Of a stretch of DNA of 64,000 nucleotides, positions 899 through 10,201 are shown piece after piece (position 1 is the first letter of the stretch; each line of letters begins with the position of its first letter). The position numbers were made by a program, and so were the translations under genes. This stretch comes from Candidatus Poribacteria bacterium. Its GTDB lineage: Bacteria; Poribacteria; WGA-4E; PCPOR2b. The notes beneath the pieces are model-generated. The model was given only the letters and a program-made list of their open reading frames with translations. It made no database searches and was not told the DNA's origin. The DNA is taken from NCBI GenBank assembly GCA_965116925.1, contig OZ220744.1, forward strand, positions 4,576,001-4,640,000, written 5' to 3'.

Positions 899-2356
899 AT
901 GTCAAACGATTCATCAGCCATTGTGCAAAAACTGTGGAATTATTGTAACGTCCTTCGCGATGATGGGATCAGCTATGGCGACTATGTGGAGCAGTTGACC
1001 TACCTTCTGTTTCTGAAAATGGCGGACGAGCAGACCAAACCGCCGTTTAGAAAAGAGTCCGTTGTTCCTGTAGGGCTAGACTGGGAGAGTCTCGTTGACA
1101 AGGAGGGAGCCGACCTTGAAACGCATTATCGCCAGATCCTCGACATGTTGGCACTGGAGAGCGGTACGCTAGGGGTGATCTTCAGAAAATCCCAAAACAG
1201 GATCCAAGACCCCGCCAAACTCAAGCGAATCATTCAACTGATCAACGATGAAACATGGATCGGGTTAGATATCGATGTGAAGGGGGACATTTACGAAGGG
1301 TTATTGCAGAAAAACGCAGAAGATATCAAAAGCGGTGCGGGCCAATACTTCACGCCCCGTCCCCTAATCAAGGCAATCGTAGAGGTGATGAAACCGGAAC
1401 CGAAGCAAACCATCTGCGATCCTGCATGCGGCACCGGCGGTTTTTTCTTAGCAGCCCATGACTATCTATCGAGCAAGAGCGACCAACTTGATAGAGAGCA
1501 GAAGCAGTTTCTCAGAGACGGGACCTTTCACGGTGTGGATCTTGTGGACAGTGTGGTGAGGCTATGTGTGATGAACCTGCACCTTCACGGCATCGGTGGA
1601 GATAAGAGTCCTGTGGAAACAGGGGATAGCCTGATTTCGGATACGGGTGAGCGTTTTGACATGGTATTGACCAATCCGCCCTTTGGCAAGAAGAGTAGCA
1701 TCACAATTGTAGATGAAAAGGGAGGGGCGGGAAAAAACGCGCTCACATACGAGCGGGAAGATTTTTGGGCGACCACCTCCAACAAGCAGCTTAACTTCCT
1801 TCAGCACGTCAAAACAATTCTGGAAATCAATGGCAGGGCAGCGGTTGTTGTGCCGGATAACGTCCTATTTGAAGGGGGCGCGGGGGAAACCGTTCGCAGG
1901 AAACTGCTGCACGAATGCGATGTCCATACATTGCTTAGACTCCCGACGGGCATCTTTTACGCACAAGGTGTCAAGGCAAATGTGCTGTTCTTCGACCGCA
2001 GACCCGCCAGCGAAACCCCGTGGACAGAGAAACTGTGGATATACGACCTACGCACCAATCAGCGATTCACGTTGAAAACGAAACAGATGCGCTACGACGA
2101 CCTTCACGATTTCATCGCCTGCTACAATCCCGACAACCGCCATGACCGGAAAGAGACCGATCAGTTTAAGTCTTTCTCCTACGATGAACTGATGCAGCGC
2201 GACAAGGTCAGTCTTGACATCTTCTGGTTGCGTGACGAAAGCCTTGAGGATACCGAGAATCTGCCGGAGCCTGATGAATTGGCAGAGGATATCGCTGCGA
2301 ACCTAGCTGCGGCGTTAGAGCAGTTTCAAGACATTTATGAGGGAGTCACTCAGTAA
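899..2356 (+). CDS. hsdM: Type I restriction-modification N6-adenine methyltransferase subunit M
   Basis: GQYFTPR, DPACGTGGF (SAM binding) and NPPF catalytic motif; N-terminal 'KLWNYCNVLRDDG'. Confidence 0.95.
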   Translation: MSNDSSAIVQKLWNYCNVLRDDGISYGDYVEQLTYLLFLKMADEQTKPPFRKESVVPVGLDWESLVDKEGADLETHYRQILDMLALESGTLGVIFRKSQNRIQDPAKLKRIIQLINDETWIGLDIDVKGDIYEGLLQKNAEDIKSGAGQYFTPRPLIKAIVEVMKPEPKQTICDPACGTGGFFLAAHDYLSSKSDQLDREQKQFLRDGTFHGVDLVDSVVRLCVMNLHLHGIGGDKSPVETGDSLISDTGERFDMVLTNPPFGKKSSITIVDEKGGAGKNALTYEREDFWATTSNKQLNFLQHVKTILEINGRAAVVVPDNVLFEGGAGETVRRKLLHECDVHTLLRLPTGIFYAQGVKANVLFFDRRPASETPWTEKLWIYDLRTNQRFTLKTKQMRYDDLHDFIACYNPDNRHDRKETDQFKSFSYDELMQRDKVSLDIFWLRDESLEDTENLPEPDELAEDIAANLAAALEQFQDIYEGVTQ

Positions 2357-2425: not shown

Positions 2426-2568
2426 GTGTCGAGATATGAATCTTGACCTACAATCTATAATTCGATTCAACCCGTCCGGTTTAGACTTTCCAATCCGCTT
2501 TGGTCAATGAGCGAGGGGACCTCGCCCCTACGATTACAGACAGCTTTACACATGTCAACACGCCCTAA
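2426..2568. repeat. Composite palindromic repeat (REP-like units plus ATGTCAACACRCCCTAA end)
   Basis: The same order of modules recurs at 20910-21030. Confidence 0.6.
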
Positions 2569-3128
2569 CTATTCAGGAAATTTTGCAACAGCTTTTTCCC
2601 CTCGCTGGTCAAGATTGATTCTGGGTGGAACTGCACCCCCCAGATCGGATAGTTCTTGTGTCGAAATCCCATAATTTCGTCTTGATTTGTCCACGCGGTG
2701 AGTTCAAGGCAATCCGGCAGCGTCTCCTTTTTCACGATGAGAGAGTGGTAACGTGTCGCCTCAAATGGGTTTTCGAGGTCGTCGAAAATCTGCTCACCGT
2801 TGTGGTGAATCATTGAGGTTTTGCCGTGCATCAGACGTCCGGCGCGGACGACATCGCCGCCAAATACATCGCCGATACACTGATGCCCCAAGCAGACACC
2901 GAGCAGGGGAACACGCCCTGCAAACTGACGGATCAGATTGCAGGAGATCCCCGCTTCCCGTGGTGTGCAGGGCCCCGGCGATATGACAATCTTCTCAGGG
3001 GCGAGATCTTCAATCTGGTCAAGCGTGATTTTGTCGTTGCGATGGACAACAAGGTTCGCTCCCAACTCGCCGAGATATTGCACGAGGTTATAGGTGAATG
3101 AGTCGTAATTGTCAATCATAAGTATCAT
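2565..3128 (-). CDS. trpG: Anthranilate/aminodeoxychorismate synthase component II (glutamine amidotransferase)
   Basis: [29 protein letters not shown]; in an operon with trpE. Confidence 0.93.
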
Positions 3129-3139
3129 CGTTTCTTCTC

Positions 3140-3826
3140 CTAACCGTTTCTGCGGATTCTCATCATCTCATCGCCGCCTTTCTGGAACTCATAAGGTACG
3201 CGACAAATATCAACCGTAAATCCAGCTTCCAAAAAATGTGATTGGATCGGTGTAATGTAGGGTGACTTTTCGCAATTCAATGTCAACAGTGGGAAAATTC
3301 GTACCTCTTGAGAAACGCGACAGAGTTCCTGTATAGAATCCCGATGAAAATCGAAAGATAGCTGAACAGAATACAGAAAAAGCAGATGCGAGCAGAGTAC
3401 CAGATCGAACTGGGAATCGGTGAAACTGAGTGTGGGCAGAGATTCAGGCAGATAACGTCCTTGCACCTTTCCCGCCTCAAAATCTTCCAGAAACTTCCTC
3501 ATGGTCTCAAGACGGTAGTGCCCCCAATGCACTGGATCCGCAAAGAAATCCCAAACGAAGTTATCAGAGTTTTGTTCCACTTGAGAGATGAGGGGATCGT
3601 AGTTCTCTTCAATTCTCCGCTCGATCTGTGCTTTTGAAAACGAGTAGATCGGATCAATTGACAGAACCGTATGCCCCAAGGTATTCATCTCGGTGTTAAA
3701 ACTGGCAGGGCCGTCACCGACACCGAGGATACGTAAGTTCAGTTCCTCATCGGAGAGATTGAACATCTGCGTGTATTCTTGCAATGATCTGCCCCAAGGG
3801 ATGACTTGGTCGAGTTTCACACTCAC
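3140..3826 (-). CDS. Putative SAM-dependent methyltransferase
   Basis: [11 protein letters not shown] motif I-like; '[20 protein letters not shown]' motif. Confidence 0.75.
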
Positions 3827-3847: not shown

Positions 3848-5332
3848 CTACTCTAATCCCGCTTCAGCGATTTCAATTGCCCTTAACACCGCTCGCGCCT
3901 TGTTGACCGTTTCTTCATACTCCGTTTCGGGCACAGAGTCTGCGACGATACCACCGCCCGCTTGGATGTAGGCAATTCCATCTTTGACGACGAGGGTGCG
4001 AATCGTGATCGCTGTGTCCGCATTGCCAGAAAAGCTGAAATAGCCAACGGCTCCGCCGTAGGGTCCCCGGCGGGTCGGTTCAAGCTCGTCGATAATCTCC
4101 ATCGCCCGGATCTTCGGGGCACCGGACAGCGTTCCAGCGGGCAGGCAGGCACGTATCACATCATAGGGGGTTTGCCCCTCGCGCAACTCTCCGATAACGT
4201 GCGAAACGATGTGCATCACATGTGAATAACGTTCGATTATCATCATCTCGCTTACGCGCACAGTATGGTATTCGCAGACGCGCCCTAGGTCGTTACGTCC
4301 GAGGTCAACGAGCATGACGTGCTCTGCCCGTTCCTTCGGGTCGGCAAGCAGTTCCATCCCCAATGCCTCATCTTCGGCTGGAGTCGCTCCACGTGGACGG
4401 GTTCCTGCGATTGGGCGCATCTCCGCAACACCGTCCTCAACGCGCACCATCATCTCCGGTGAGGCACCCGCAATCTGGAGTTCATCGAACTTGAGGTAGA
4501 ACATATAAGGCGATGGGTTGACAGTGCGCAAGGCACGATACGCATCGAATGTATCGACCGATATCGGAACACTAAAGCGCTGTGATGGCACAACCTGAAT
4601 GATGTCCCCCGCGGCGATATATTCCTTCGCCCGAAGGACAACCTGATGGTAATCGTCCTTCGTGAAGTTTGAGGTGACGGGCACACCGCTTGGACTGACA
4701 ACCGGCTTGTTTGTGTAATTCATCAACAACGGCTGCTTGAGTTTAGCGATCAGTTCGTCGATCTGATCAAGTGCTTTTTTATAGGCTTGGTCAACATCGC
4801 CGTTGATGTGGGCGTTGGCGACCACCTTGATCTGATGGTTCACATGGTCAAACACAAGCAGCGTATCGGTGACCATAAAAAAACAATCGGGTAGTTCTCG
4901 ATCATCTTCGGTAGTGTCGGGGAGTTCCTCGACGTAACGCACCATGTCGTAGTTCAGGTAGCCGACCGCTCCACCGTGAAATCGCGGCAATCCCTCGACT
5001 TCAACGGGTTGATAGTGAGCCATCAACTCTTCAAGCTCCTCTAACGGGTCTTTGCTTTTGAATTCAACCGTACCCCCGGTTCGGAGGTTATCAATCTGGA
5101 CCAGATTGCCCTTGCCCCTAAGTAGGACTGATGGATCACTGCCGAGAAACGAATATCGGGCGACGTGTTCACCGCCTTCGACGCTCTCCAGCAGAAATGC
5201 GTGGTCACTTCCTCCGATTTTGTAAAATGCGGATACAGGTGTTTCCATATCCGCCAGCATCGTCTTGTAGACGGGAATCAAGTTGCCGTGTTGTGCTTTT
5301 TCTCTAAAATCTTCTAAGTTTGGGTAATACAT
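3848..5332 (-). CDS. trpE: Anthranilate synthase component I
   Basis: LLES (Trp feedback site), [35 protein letters not shown]. Confidence 0.95.
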
Positions 5333-5352: not shown

Positions 5353-5733
5353 TCAGTATACTGCATCTGGGTCAAAAACCTTTTCACCAACAATGTGCGT
5401 AGAGTTACCATCGGGGGAGACTTCCCGAAAGAAGCAGGAACGGTAGCCGACGTGGCACGCCCCGCCTTTCTGTTCGACTTTGATTAGTAGCGCATCGGCA
5501 TCACAATCAAAGGCGACCGTTCGCACGGTTTGCGTGTGTCCTGAAGTCTCCCCCTTGATCCAGTATTCCTGGCGGGAGCGGCTCCAAAAGCAGACACGCC
5601 CTGATTCTAATGTCTTCCGCACAGCCTCGCGGTTCATATAGCCGACCATGAGGACCTCTTTGTTTTCGTCATCCTGTATAATGGCAGGAATTAAACCGTT
5701 CTGATCGGTCTTGAGTTGATTTAGGATTTCCAT
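5353..5733 (-). CDS. hisI: Phosphoribosyl-AMP cyclohydrolase
   Basis: [29 protein letters not shown]. Confidence 0.96.
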
Positions 5734-5764: not shown

Positions 5765-5806
5765 AAAAAAAGCCGTAGACAACGGGGTTCGTATGCCTAC
5801 GGCTTT
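5765..5806 (-). terminator. Intrinsic terminator of the attenuator upstream of hisI
   Basis: Minus strand: AAAGCCGTAGGCA-loop-TGTCTACGGCTTT running into a 7-U tract, between the leader peptide and the hisI RBS. Confidence 0.9.
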
Positions 5807-5831
5807 GGTTTCTAGATATGAGTCCAAAGAT

Positions 5832-5933
5832 TTATCTCAACAAAGGCACACTGCTCCCCTCAACACGATGCCACCACCAGTGCCAATGATGAGATGCGAT
5901 TTGAAATTGTGGTTGTCGGTTCAGGGTTTGCAT
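5832..5933 (-). CDS. His/Trp-rich attenuator leader peptide MQTLNRQPQFQIASHHWHWWWHRVEGSSVPLLR (not in the ORF track)
   Basis: Translated by hand: ATG at 5933 preceded by GAAAGG; eight consecutive His/Trp codons at 5891-5868; TAA at 5834-5832; terminator follows. Confidence 0.9.
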   Translation of the reverse strand: MQTLNRQPQFQIASHHWHWWWHRVEGSSVPLLR

Positions 5934-5970
5934 AGTACCTTTCAACTTCCTGTTTGTTCAGATTATGTAA

Positions 5971-6000
5971 AGCATATCACAATTTTAGTTTCGGTGTCAA
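5971..6000 (-). promoter_or_regulatory. Sigma70-type promoter of the leader-hisI-trpE operon
   Basis: TTGACA (6000-5995), 18 nt, then TATGCT with a TGn extension (5976-5971). Confidence 0.7.
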
Positions 6001-6021: not shown

Positions 6022-6834
6022 TCACCCAACCAGCGGCTGCAAAAACTCGATGCTTCGACGGGCAATTGTCTCTGGATCCGGCTCAAAGTTGAAGACCTCG
6101 GTCGAGAGATAGCCTGTGTAATTGATTTCCTTCAATGCCTCGATAATTGGTGGGTAATCCACATTACCGGAGCCGGGGAGATATCCGTTATCGTCGTTGG
6201 TGTGAAAGTGCGCCACGTGTTCGGCGTATTTGCGGATCTGTGTGGGCATGTCCAAGTTTTCGGCTGCTGTACTCGTTACATCAAGGATGATTTGAAAAAT
6301 CGGATTATCGACTGCTTTGACCATCTCTACTGCGGCTGCCGGTGTATTGATAAAATTTGTATGTTGGCTTGCCAACGGTTCCATGCACAAAATGACACCC
6401 TGTTCTTGAGCGAATTCTGCACACGCTGCGAAGGTTTCCTGTGCATAGCTCCACGCTTGCTCTGGTGCCAGTGGATCCAGTACGTTGCGTTCATTGGGTG
6501 AACCGATGACCATAATCTTCCCACCCAGATCAGCACAACACGAAATCAGTTCAAAAAAATAGTCGCGTGTTTTCTCGCGGATATCTCCGTCGGGGTGATT
6601 GACGTGCAATCCTTTTGGTGAGACCAGCAGCCAATGTAGTCCAGCGATTTCGATTTTCGCTGTATCTGCCGCTTTTCGGATGCGATCTCTTTCGGCTTGG
6701 CTGATGTCCACCACCGATTCTGCAAGCGTGAAAGGTGCGAGTTCCACGGCATCGTAGCCGAGTTTGGCAGCGCACAGAAAAACATCTTCGATCCCCCAAT
6801 CCTCAAACATTTCGTTGCAGATAGCTAGTTTCAT
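6022..6834 (-). CDS. Sugar phosphate isomerase/epimerase (D-tagatose 3-epimerase-like TIM barrel)
   Basis: CMEPL, ILDV, HFHTND, PGSGNVDY, YLSTEVF motifs. Confidence 0.85.
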   Translation of the reverse strand: MKLAICNEMFEDWGIEDVFLCAAKLGYDAVELAPFTLAESVVDISQAERDRIRKAADTAKIEIAGLHWLLVSPKGLHVNHPDGDIREKTRDYFFELISCCADLGGKIMVIGSPNERNVLDPLAPEQAWSYAQETFAACAEFAQEQGVILCMEPLASQHTNFINTPAAAVEMVKAVDNPIFQIILDVTSTAAENLDMPTQIRKYAEHVAHFHTNDDNGYLPGSGNVDYPPIIEALKEINYTGYLSTEVFNFEPDPETIARRSIEFLQPLVG

Positions 6835-7054: not shown

Positions 7055-7651
7055 TTAAGGATCTTCCTTCCACCGTTGGATGAGATCTGTATCGATGTCA
7101 AATTGATCCAGTGCCTTTGTGACGATGAAATTGATCATATCGTCAACCGTTTTGGGGAAGTGGTAAAAACCCGGCATGGCAGGCAGCACCACCACGCCGA
7201 GTTGGGATAGCTTGAGCATATTTTCGAGATGGATGGCGCTGAGCGGCGTTTCTCGTGGCACGAGGACCAGTTTACGCCGCTCTTTGATACAGACATCGGC
7301 GGCGCGCTGGATGAGATTTCGGGAGATGCCCGCCGCTATCGCGCCGATAGTTCCCATGCTGCACGGTGCAACGACCATACCCGCAGTGCGGAAGGAGCCG
7401 CTGGCAATCGACGCTCCGATGTCGGACTGATGGTGGTAAATCACCTGATCTGACGGGTAGCCGATTAGGGATTTAAGGCGGAAATTGTCCAGATCTACAC
7501 GGAGCTGCAGCTCTTCCCACAACGCCCTTGCGCCGGAGTCGGAAATCGTCAGGTGGATTTCATAGTCGTCGCATCGGGTGAGAGTCTCTAGCAGACGCAC
7601 ACCGTAGATGACGGCACTTGCTCCCGTTATCCCGACAATTATACGTTTCAA
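7055..7651 (-). CDS. ubiX: Flavin prenyltransferase
   Basis: GITGAS, IASGSF, APCSMGT, RAADV..KERR.LVLVPRETP. Confidence 0.93.
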   Translation of the reverse strand: MKRIIVGITGASAVIYGVRLLETLTRCDDYEIHLTISDSGARALWEELQLRVDLDNFRLKSLIGYPSDQVIYHHQSDIGASIASGSFRTAGMVVAPCSMGTIGAIAAGISRNLIQRAADVCIKERRKLVLVPRETPLSAIHLENMLKLSQLGVVVLPAMPGFYHFPKTVDDMINFIVTKALDQFDIDTDLIQRWKEDP

Positions 7652-7676: not shown

Positions 7677-8039
7677 TTACCGGTTCTGAACGTTCTTTAT
7701 CCAGTCTCCCAAGTTATTTTTCACTCGCATCAACCGGTCGGGAGAAATTTCGCCTATTGTTCCAGTCAAAATATTCCCTGAGACCACAGCGAGACGAGTT
7801 GTACGGATAACGCTCGCCGTTTTCAAACCGGAACGGACAAAGTCTGGAGAATCTTCATTGATAATTTCATCAAAACCTTCAACATATTGATTGAGATTTG
7901 ATGAAATCATACAAATTAGCCAGTCATCATAATTGCCGGGAATTTGTGCTAGCAGGAGTGCTGGACGTTGTTTTCCAGCACCCAAGTCGGTCTGTGGAAA
8001 ATTGAACAGAACAATCTGTCCTGCCCTTCTCACACCCAC
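7677..8039 (-). CDS. PemK/MazF-family toxin
   Basis: 'GQIVLFNFPQTD...KQRPALL', 'SGLKTASVIR'; overlaps the upstream small ORF. Confidence 0.8.
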   Translation of the reverse strand: MGVRRAGQIVLFNFPQTDLGAGKQRPALLLAQIPGNYDDWLICMISSNLNQYVEGFDEIINEDSPDFVRSGLKTASVIRTTRLAVVSGNILTGTIGEISPDRLMRVKNNLGDWIKNVQNR

Positions 8040-8269: not shown

Positions 8270-9532
8270 CTACTCTTCATGGAACGGCGGTAGGTTGCCA
8301 TCGGTGTCGAACGCTAAAGGCTTCAGTTCGCCGGTAACCTCCAAATCGGTGCGGAGTTTTGCATCTTCGAGCAGGGCTTCGGAGATGTCCACCTCTGCGA
8401 GACCGAGGGTGCTTTCAATTCGCACTACTTTTGATTCTTCAGGCGGAGTGAGTCCAACCGTGTTCAATGCGATCTCAATAGCCTCGCGGTCTGTGTCGTA
8501 ATAGAAGGGCGTTTTCGACTTCTGCGGTCCCATTCCGGTGATACCATTCATATATGTCGCGTGCCGATCCATCTTTTCCACAAGGCGTGTTGTGGTGAAG
8601 TCCGCCAATCCAACGCCTGTTGCGTTACCATCGCTATCGTCGGTCAGATCTCGGACGAAGATTCGTACAATCGCGGGTTTTTCTGGCTCTGGTTCAAGGA
8701 TCTGCATCATTCGACCGATGATGTTGGTATCCATGCCTGTCCCGCTGATGTTTTTGCCCATCCAATCCACGATTAGAAGGTCAAAGGCATCAAACGGCAG
8801 ACGTCCCATCAGCGACTTGGATTCGACGAGGAGTTCACGTTCGCGACGCATGATTTCATCGGCGCGCATGGCGGCGACCTTCGCTGTCTGTTCGTGTGCG
8901 TTTTCGACCAGTCCAACTCCAAAACCAACCCTTCCAGCATCTATGAGCAAGCCGGTAACTGTCCGGATGATATGCTCGAATCCGTAGTGGAAGAAGGCAC
9001 GATGATACATATTCGCACCGTGCTGTTTGCCAAATCCGATCGTCAACATCTTCAGGGTGCCGCTCTCAACCGTGCCTCTGAAATCGGTGTGTGCTTTGAT
9101 CCGATTGACTGGAACAATGTGATCCGCGTTGGCGGCGTAGGTATCAAGGAATACTGGCAATCCGTCGGCGGTTTGACCGATTTCGACGACCTCCATTGTT
9201 GCCTTGATTGGTACACCGACTGTTTCTTCAGTGACGCCATAATGTTCTAGTACGGCTCGCTGTCCTTCTGCGGTTGCGCCCCCGTGGCTCCCCATCGCTG
9301 GTACGACAAACGGGTTTGCACCGATGTCCTTGAGGTATTCCGCCGTTGCTTTAATAACGGTGGCGATGTTTGCAACCCCTCGGCTGCCACCGCCAATAGC
9401 GACGGTATCTCCTTTGCCGATGATTGACGCCGTGCCGATTTGATCCAATTCCTCTTTAACTGCTGCGGGCAAATCTGCGACGACGGGAGCATCAAAATGT
9501 TGTTTTATACGAACCATTCTTGGTAGTGTCAT
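8270..9532 (-). CDS. Lactate racemase (LarA) N-terminal-like domain protein
   Basis: GSRGVANI, PAMGSHGGAT, NRIKAHT, GKNISGTGMD motifs. Confidence 0.75.
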   Translation of the reverse strand: MTLPRMVRIKQHFDAPVVADLPAAVKEELDQIGTASIIGKGDTVAIGGGSRGVANIATVIKATAEYLKDIGANPFVVPAMGSHGGATAEGQRAVLEHYGVTEETVGVPIKATMEVVEIGQTADGLPVFLDTYAANADHIVPVNRIKAHTDFRGTVESGTLKMLTIGFGKQHGANMYHRAFFHYGFEHIIRTVTGLLIDAGRVGFGVGLVENAHEQTAKVAAMRADEIMRRERELLVESKSLMGRLPFDAFDLLIVDWMGKNISGTGMDTNIIGRMMQILEPEPEKPAIVRIFVRDLTDDSDGNATGVGLADFTTTRLVEKMDRHATYMNGITGMGPQKSKTPFYYDTDREAIEIALNTVGLTPPEESKVVRIESTLGLAEVDISEALLEDAKLRTDLEVTGELKPLAFDTDGNLPPFHEE

Positions 9533-9699: not shown

Positions 9700-10201
9700 C
9701 TAAAATGTCCGTCCACTTGCCTGAATGAACGGTTTGAGTTCTGTGACCAATTGCCGGAATTTGTCTGGGCGGAGCGATTGCGCCCCATCGGACAATGCGT
9801 TTTCAGGATCCGGATGCACTTCGATCATCAGTCCGTCCGCCCCTGCGGCGACCGCAGCCTTTGCCATTGGATTGACATATTCCCAATGCCCTGTCCCGTG
9901 GCTCGGATCGGCGATGATAGGCAGGTGACTCATCTTCTTGATTACCGGAATTGCATTCAGGTCAAAGGTGTTCCGCGTCGCCGTTTCAAAGGTACGGATG
10001 CCCCGCTCGCACAGGATGACGTTGTAATTCCCTTCGGAGAGGATATAGCAGCTCATGCTTGCCGCGTTCGTCCCCAATCGCTGCGATGACGGTATGCTTT
10101 GTGCCCTGAATAGGATGGGGTGTATAGTTGAGTTCCCTGATTTGAGCGATGACAGCGTCAATAGATTGTTGTTCCGCTCCTACTTTCATCACGATGACCA
10201 T
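9700..10201 (-). pseudogene. aroF: DAHP synthase (type I-beta) with a large internal deletion and frameshift
   Basis: The N-terminal regulatory part (MVIVMK...AAIGDERGK) is joined out of frame near 10050 to the C-terminal part ([38 protein letters not shown]). The central KPRT region is absent. Confidence 0.85.

Follow-up and report, generated by a model that had tools for sequence, protein, structure and literature searches.

Background

Several known attenuators read more than one amino acid: thrL holds codons for Thr and Ile, ilvL/ivbL for Ile, Leu and Val, and aromatic leaders for Phe, Tyr and Trp, multivalent leaders of the last kind being reportedly covered by the Vitreschak 2004 and Lopatovskaya 2010 surveys. 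The His and Trp pathways are separate and share only PRPP. In the available part of PMC1262725, complementary triples are described in actinobacterial trp leaders, and Trp leaders were found in Actinobacteria but none for His. PMC9413887 describes His leaders carrying three to five consecutive His, and PMC1183508 names the thr and ilv attenuators and models the trp and his attenuators separately; PMC4833913 was likewise included in the literature compared. Judging by titles and abstracts, this literature contains neither a mixed His/Trp leader nor a Poribacteria attenuator, and supplements and older surveys may list more.

Here we examine a leader on the minus strand of a stretch of 64,000 nucleotides of Candidatus Poribacteria DNA, referred to as the window, whose coordinates are used throughout. 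Given its ORF, its geometry, antiterminator (2:3) and terminator (3:4) helices that covary across the phylum, and folds of ribosome-masked RNA, the locus is almost certainly a real trpL-type, ribosome-dependent transcription attenuator. It probably responds to limitation of either His or Trp.

Leader and operon in the window

Promoter, GAAAGG, ORF, control codons, pairing segments and terminator all lie where the earlier note had placed them, the promoter being a promoter-like site only. This sigma70-type site (TTGACA-18-TG-TATGCT; 5971..6000, minus strand), predicted from sequence, is the only one in 1.2 kb against a chance mean of 1.4, so its count carries no above-chance signal; similar hexamer pairs, judged by eye, occur upstream of homologous leaders. 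A Shine-Dalgarno-like GAAAGG (5938..5943, minus strand), of which AAGG is retained in most same-genus leaders, precedes a leader ORF of 33 codons running from ATG 5933 to a stop at 5832 (5832..5933, minus strand). The ORF is present as described, and an ORF listing gives it in a 37-aa form beginning at an upstream TTG. Control codons 15-22 (5868..5891, minus strand) are CAT CAT TGG CAC TGG TGG TGG CAT, or HHWHWWWH; with one mismatch tolerated, the window holds a single match to the codon pattern H-W-H-W-W, where chance would give 0.01.

The putative RNA switch is built from elements inside and behind this ORF, all on the minus strand. GGCAU (5868..5872) is the 5' arm of a weak 1:2 hairpin, a possible pause or protector, in the minimum free energy fold of 5891-5840. 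Segment 2 (GUGUGCCU; 5844..5851), the 5' arm of the antiterminator, falls within leader codons 28-30, and segment 3 (AGGCAUAC; 5791..5798) is common to antiterminator and terminator; both are placed by folds and covariation. Folding also gives an inner antiterminator helix, CUUUGG (5829-5824) with CCAAAG (5808-5803), spanning 5803..5829, which is lost in most relatives. An intrinsic terminator hairpin with U-run occupies 5765..5806 (fold -21.8 kcal/mol, z -6.25, with covariation) and was not picked up by a simple terminator scan.

The operon, also on the minus strand, begins with hisI, encoding phosphoribosyl-AMP cyclohydrolase (5353..5733; NF000768, 178.6 bits against a cut-off of 126), whose closest relatives among titled records are from Ca. 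Poribacteria. It continues with trpE, encoding anthranilate synthase component I (3848..5332; TIGR00564, 600 bits against a cut-off of 518), of which a separate pabB-like paralog lies elsewhere in the genome, and includes a trpG/pabA glutamine amidotransferase (2565..3128; TIGR00566 and NF005799 above cut-off). The identities and order of a hisI-trpE-trpG operon, as claimed earlier, hold, except that a 228-aa gene (3140..3826) sits between trpE and trpG. We regard it as a SAM-dependent methyltransferase-like passenger: Pfam and NCBIfam profiles give no match, and its atlas look-alikes (0.99) carry PF08241 in 42-46% of members. The gene is present in 12 of 31 genomes, behind trpE wherever coordinates permit checking, and in two genomes the copy between trpE and trpG is interrupted by an internal stop.

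The earlier note had the leader composition matching the operon exactly. His and Trp codons do go with hisI and trpE, but just one his gene is in the operon, and the other his and trp genes of this genome are scattered. The covariance model described below finds no match upstream of 15 other his/trp loci in this genome; with no other his region matching, control would extend to a single step of His synthesis. No His-rich ORF of at least 20 aa precedes hisG in this genome. Three weaker model matches in the genome proved to be ordinary terminators behind a leuA-like gene and tRNA-like stretches. The W-H/Y-W-W pattern has 9 further matches in the genome against 6 in the control, and the one genomic match that was checked falls within the coding sequence of an ABC transporter. 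Partial coverage of the leader or hisI is given by assembled RNA-library contigs from four studies, which carry no information on strand, ends or level; depth steps near 5987 in these contigs coincide with loose ends from diverged strains and were set aside.

Elsewhere in the window, a DAHP synthase I-like ORF (9700-10161, minus strand) matches only the C-terminal part of its profile and is possibly truncated or frameshifted. The window also encodes a PemK/MazF-like toxin (7677-8039, minus strand), a UbiX prenyltransferase (7055-7651, minus strand), a lactate-racemase-domain protein (8270-9532, minus strand) and a type I HsdM-like methyltransferase (899-2356, plus strand). A tandem pair of trpD-like genes was seen at G000:C1:6119793-6121712 (L159).

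Folding and covariation of the RNA switch

Covariation was counted on alignment A3, because RNAalifold on alignment A1 gave a terminator without the antiterminator, which was missed there since family f2 was out of register in segment 2. On A3, two-sided change is seen in 5 of the 8 antiterminator pairs (89% of cells paired) and in 8 of the 11 terminator pairs (95% of cells paired). These scores were reached by 0-1 of 500 shuffles, and slid registers scored far lower; as relatedness alone can beat shuffles, and as the structures were derived from this very sequence, the weight rests on the two-sided counts.

When RNA was masked for ribosomes stalled at codons 15-22 and cut before the terminator 3' arm, it folded into the antiterminator at -24.6 to -27.9 kcal/mol, extended by a GGGG:CCCC helix, and the same antiterminator appeared in masked folds of four relatives. 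RNA masked beyond segment 2 began the terminator stem, in equilibrium folds that include no kinetics. In equilibrium folds, 2:3 also prevails in unmasked nascent RNA, and we infer from this that termination is triggered mainly by the running ribosome itself, through its cover of codons 28-30. On these folds, a leader lacking its ATG would not super-attenuate, in contrast to E. coli trpL.

These results largely bear out the structure drawn in the earlier note. Its pairing of GTGTGCCT (5851-5844) with AGGCATAC (5798-5791) covaries and is reproduced by the masked folds. Two of the checks it proposed came out in its favour: with the ribosome footprint masked, a stall gives the antiterminator and passage beyond segment 2 the start of the terminator, and in the alignment of relatives the H/W cluster is kept and both stems covary. 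Its 1:2 helix through GGCACTG finds no comparable support, the best-folding hairpin using GGCAU (5872-5868), and neither of the two candidate registers (87% and 78% of cells paired) showing covariation above shuffles.

Conservation across Poribacteria

Of 151 phylum genomes, a sample dominated by one family, 145 contain the element according to a covariance model, which gives rough E-values and was built from 17 spread sequences that match by construction. hisI was present in all 61 genomes of the order, at 63 loci, 59 of which have trpE directly behind. At 50 of these 59, a short ORF contains a W-[H/Y]-W-W core; in most cases the first Trp follows the ATG by about 16 codons and is itself followed by a stop 15-17 codons later. 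The central codon of the 50 cores is CAT in 44, CAC in 4, TAC in 1 and TAT in 1.

The other nine of the 59 loci depart from this arrangement. The leader at L022 reads HHWHWRWH, and that at L012 (genome G009) reads HHW followed by an insertion within the control codons. The core lies 549 nt upstream at L030. L055 reads QHFW, L056 reads FHHWC with an early stop and no start in that frame, L058 reads FHYWC with an early stop, and L034 has no His. Locus L038 is at a contig edge, and at L057 the element was looked for and not found. In addition, the attenuator is tandemly duplicated in G005 (L003), and in G105 (L291) repeats replace the leader beside hisI.

His codons and linkage to hisI

His codons were scored in a His window extending from two codons before the first Trp through the last Trp. 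With most short leader translations read by hand from the displayed DNA, 55 of the order's 57 readable leaders linked to hisI were found to have His in this His window, the two without it being L032 and L034. Among hisI-linked leaders of other families it was found in six of seven (HHHWCWW, HWHWGW, HRHW twice and WRHWHW twice), and the leader at L105 has a His three codons before the first Trp, outside the His window. In the hisI-linked H-R-H-W leaders, His outnumbers Trp.

By comparison, His is absent from the His window in 13 of 14 homologous leaders without hisI, some of them outside the phylum, in a set in which a trpS leader found twice was counted once and L278 was left out because the gene behind it was unchecked. 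In genus g10, leaders reading KRWWY, SRWRH and RRWCH precede trpE alone, two of the three having His two codons after Trp, and hisI is a different gene, about 50% identical, beside CobW-family genes. This replacement hisI heads a cluster with CobW-family proteins (L063:285-3474; also L061 and L062) and may be a zinc-limitation-type paralog. In another Poribacteria class, hisI lies elsewhere or was not found, and leaders before trpE or trpS-trpE read WRWWW, WCWWW and WCWW. Leaders before trpS read WRWW and WPWH, the latter with a His just after Trp, and three leaders before ADH synthase are of the F/Y-W-R-W type. The exception is G078, where HAYHWFWWW lies ahead of an AsnC-like gene, trpD and trpC/trpF-like genes. 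The trpD and trpC/trpF-like genes were identified by eye, and no hisI appears before the contig ends. Kin are not independent, and by our reckoning the match between His codons and hisI is worth approximately two independent contrasts, the other class and genus g10.

The central CAU can base-pair, so its conservation alone leaves His sensing undecided, and the His codons could instead reflect RNA pairing and ancestry in an attenuator that responds to Trp only, with hisI a hitch-hiker on basal read-through. Pairings of GGCAU with GUGYC and of AUUGG with CCAAU could account for these codons, and the central codon folds into a hairpin in f2. CAC is rare (CAU makes up 44 of 48 His cases, and 35 of 35 in f2), which points to an RNA constraint as well, and the Tyr substitutions in L006 and L032 preserve pairing. 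Many f2 leaders hold a single His, and G078 places a His-bearing leader on a Trp-only operon. Furthermore, the five hisI-trpE loci found outside Poribacteria (L108, L110, L115, L119 and L120; Omnitrophota, Auribacterota, Verrucomicrobiota and unnamed bacteria) all have the order hisF-hisI-trpE, which suggests that hisI came with trpE; hisI-trpE may then be ancestral, with two losses. As hisF is directly upstream of hisI at these five loci, no leader is expected there; heads of his-trp junction operons in those phyla may carry leaders of their own.

The deciding comparison is with hisI-less leaders on the same scaffold, because Arg at the central site keeps the pairing but is not seen there in hisI-linked cores. 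CGU or CGC at the central codon, which preserves RNA pairing, is common without hisI, yet it was seen in none of the 50 hisI-linked cores (found with a pattern that allowed only H or Y). With the central codon left free, it was again seen in none of 35 f2 cores, all of which have CAT (35 leader rows of 37, two chance rows having been dropped, from a search whose first gap was too narrow, missed families f1 and f3 and was used for the f2 codon count only). The codon after the Trp run, on the other hand, varies freely among CAU, CGU, CGA, UGU and others. The HHH and H-R-H-W leaders of other families put His elsewhere, and the 1:2 helix shows no covariation. By the general mechanism of attenuation, four His codons would be expected to stall the ribosome under His starvation regardless of their origin. 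We thus consider a Trp-only response unlikely. A queuosine-codon idea, based on NAY codons around the core, was dropped, as Gly, Ser, Arg and Thr also occur at adjacent positions.

Copies of the scaffold before other genes

The same scaffold occurs before genes other than hisI and trpE. A copy before pheS in the other Poribacteria class (L276:1500-1771) holds Phe codons only, and L270, L271 and L275 of that class are the F/W/Y leaders before ADH synthase, with which the archaeal-type route to aromatics begins. Outside the phylum, a WRWW leader precedes iorA, encoding indolepyruvate ferredoxin oxidoreductase alpha, in Thermodesulfobacteriota (L253:813-1060), and a WQYYYFYF leader precedes aroK-aroC, with trpE divergent, in Desulfobacteraceae (L231:814-1008); both belong to the 14 leaders without hisI counted above. 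Extra copies in genus g11 (L273:1407-1620 and L274) have HH...W...H leaders and are not followed by any evident biosynthetic gene. In genus g14, copies L287, L288 and L289 are decayed and have lost the Trp run, and two of them precede an ABC transporter and a sigma54-type regulator. Copies without a Trp run also occur outside Poribacteria, in Chloroflexota (L195, L198, L201, L204, L213, L241, L243, L248 and L251) and Armatimonadia (L216); the ones that were checked lie ahead of ABC transporters or of a SpoU rRNA methylase and are possibly antibiotic- or stress-responsive attenuators.

Scaffold copies before ABC transporters and the SpoU methylase in Chloroflexota and some Poribacteria could also suggest that the H/W run serves to slow or arrest translation in general, in answer to translation stress or antibiotics, and is no amino-acid sensor. 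This is very improbable, as biosynthetic and synthetase genes (pheS, trpS, aro genes and trpE) have cognate control codons, and the transporter-linked copies that were read lack the Trp run. Least credible is that the hairpin is a mere terminator of the upstream epimerase gene, which ends at 6022, and that the ORF encodes a small H/W-rich peptide whose function, if any, is separate: no terminator was found between that gene and the leader, and leader translation is only predicted, but the covarying antiterminator, promoter-like site and fixed ORF geometry persist phylum-wide, and residues outside the control codons drift freely among relatives.

Proposed mechanism

In an attenuator responding to either His or Trp, the trigger would be a drop in charged tRNA-His or in charged tRNA-Trp. 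When neither amino acid is scarce, the ribosome would translate through segment 2, at codons 28-30, as far as the stop (codon 34), whereupon 3:4 would form and transcription would end at about 5765. A stall at any of codons 15-22 would leave segment 2 free to form 2:3, and hisI-trpE-(methyltransferase)-trpG would be transcribed. The His codons may ensure that an ample supply of Trp is not by itself enough to switch off an essential His enzyme. The OR-gate coupling of two pathways put forward in the earlier note finds support in the co-occurrence of His codons with hisI, and its dual response stays a prediction from sequence.

With regard to history, a Trp-type leader (W-R/C-W-W) on a reusable scaffold would carry His codons where hisI is in the operon. 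We lean slightly towards the full form of this proposal, in which a cross-pathway His-or-Trp attenuator sits on a reusable scaffold whose codons have been rewritten (Trp, Phe, Phe/Tyr/Trp or His/Trp). Its His input would be gained or lost by CGU/CAU changes that spare the fold and accompany the arrival of hisI in the trpE operon or its departure, and hisI would be the sole His transcriptional control point found. If true, this brings two separate pathways under multivalent attenuation, in a phylum not yet cultured, and offers a rare traceable change of regulatory input alongside operon content, via single-base codon changes. Spanning about 240 nt, the leader has natural homologs, predicted to be Trp-only or Phe-only, that are available as controls, and it could become a two-input amino-acid sensor part.

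Comparison with known attenuators

Searches with Rfam models (Trp_leader, which we take to be RF00513, His_leader, T-box and aptamer models) gave three chance-level matches only, at E-values up to 10. Like trpL of E. coli and Salmonella and the actinobacterial trp leaders, the Poribacteria leader has a short ORF with tandem UGG ahead of trpE, and an alternative antiterminator and terminator based on a repeated short complementary triple. It differs from trpL in its interleaved His codons, in having hisI as first gene, in its phylum and in matching no Rfam family, and from E. coli trp in having no covarying 1:2 helix.

With hisL of gammaproteobacteria and the His leaders of the Bacillus cereus group and Eubacteriales, it shares His codons before a his gene, together with a terminator and an antiterminator. 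In the available portions of PMC9413887 and PMC2965389, however, known His leaders have three to five or more consecutive His and stand in front of hisG/hisZ/hisS-type genes or of entire his operons, whereas the Poribacteria leader mixes one to four His with Trp and, among his genes, would control hisI only.

As in thrL, ilvL/ivbL and the aromatic leaders, several amino acids feed one switch, which is an OR by construction, and codons of two amino acids are kept in the control window, matching the operon genes. On the evidence of its sequence, the Poribacteria leader is an attenuator that would work like these multivalent ones, outside the Rfam Trp and His families. Those leaders join end products of one branched pathway, whereas the Poribacteria leader would join two separate pathways.
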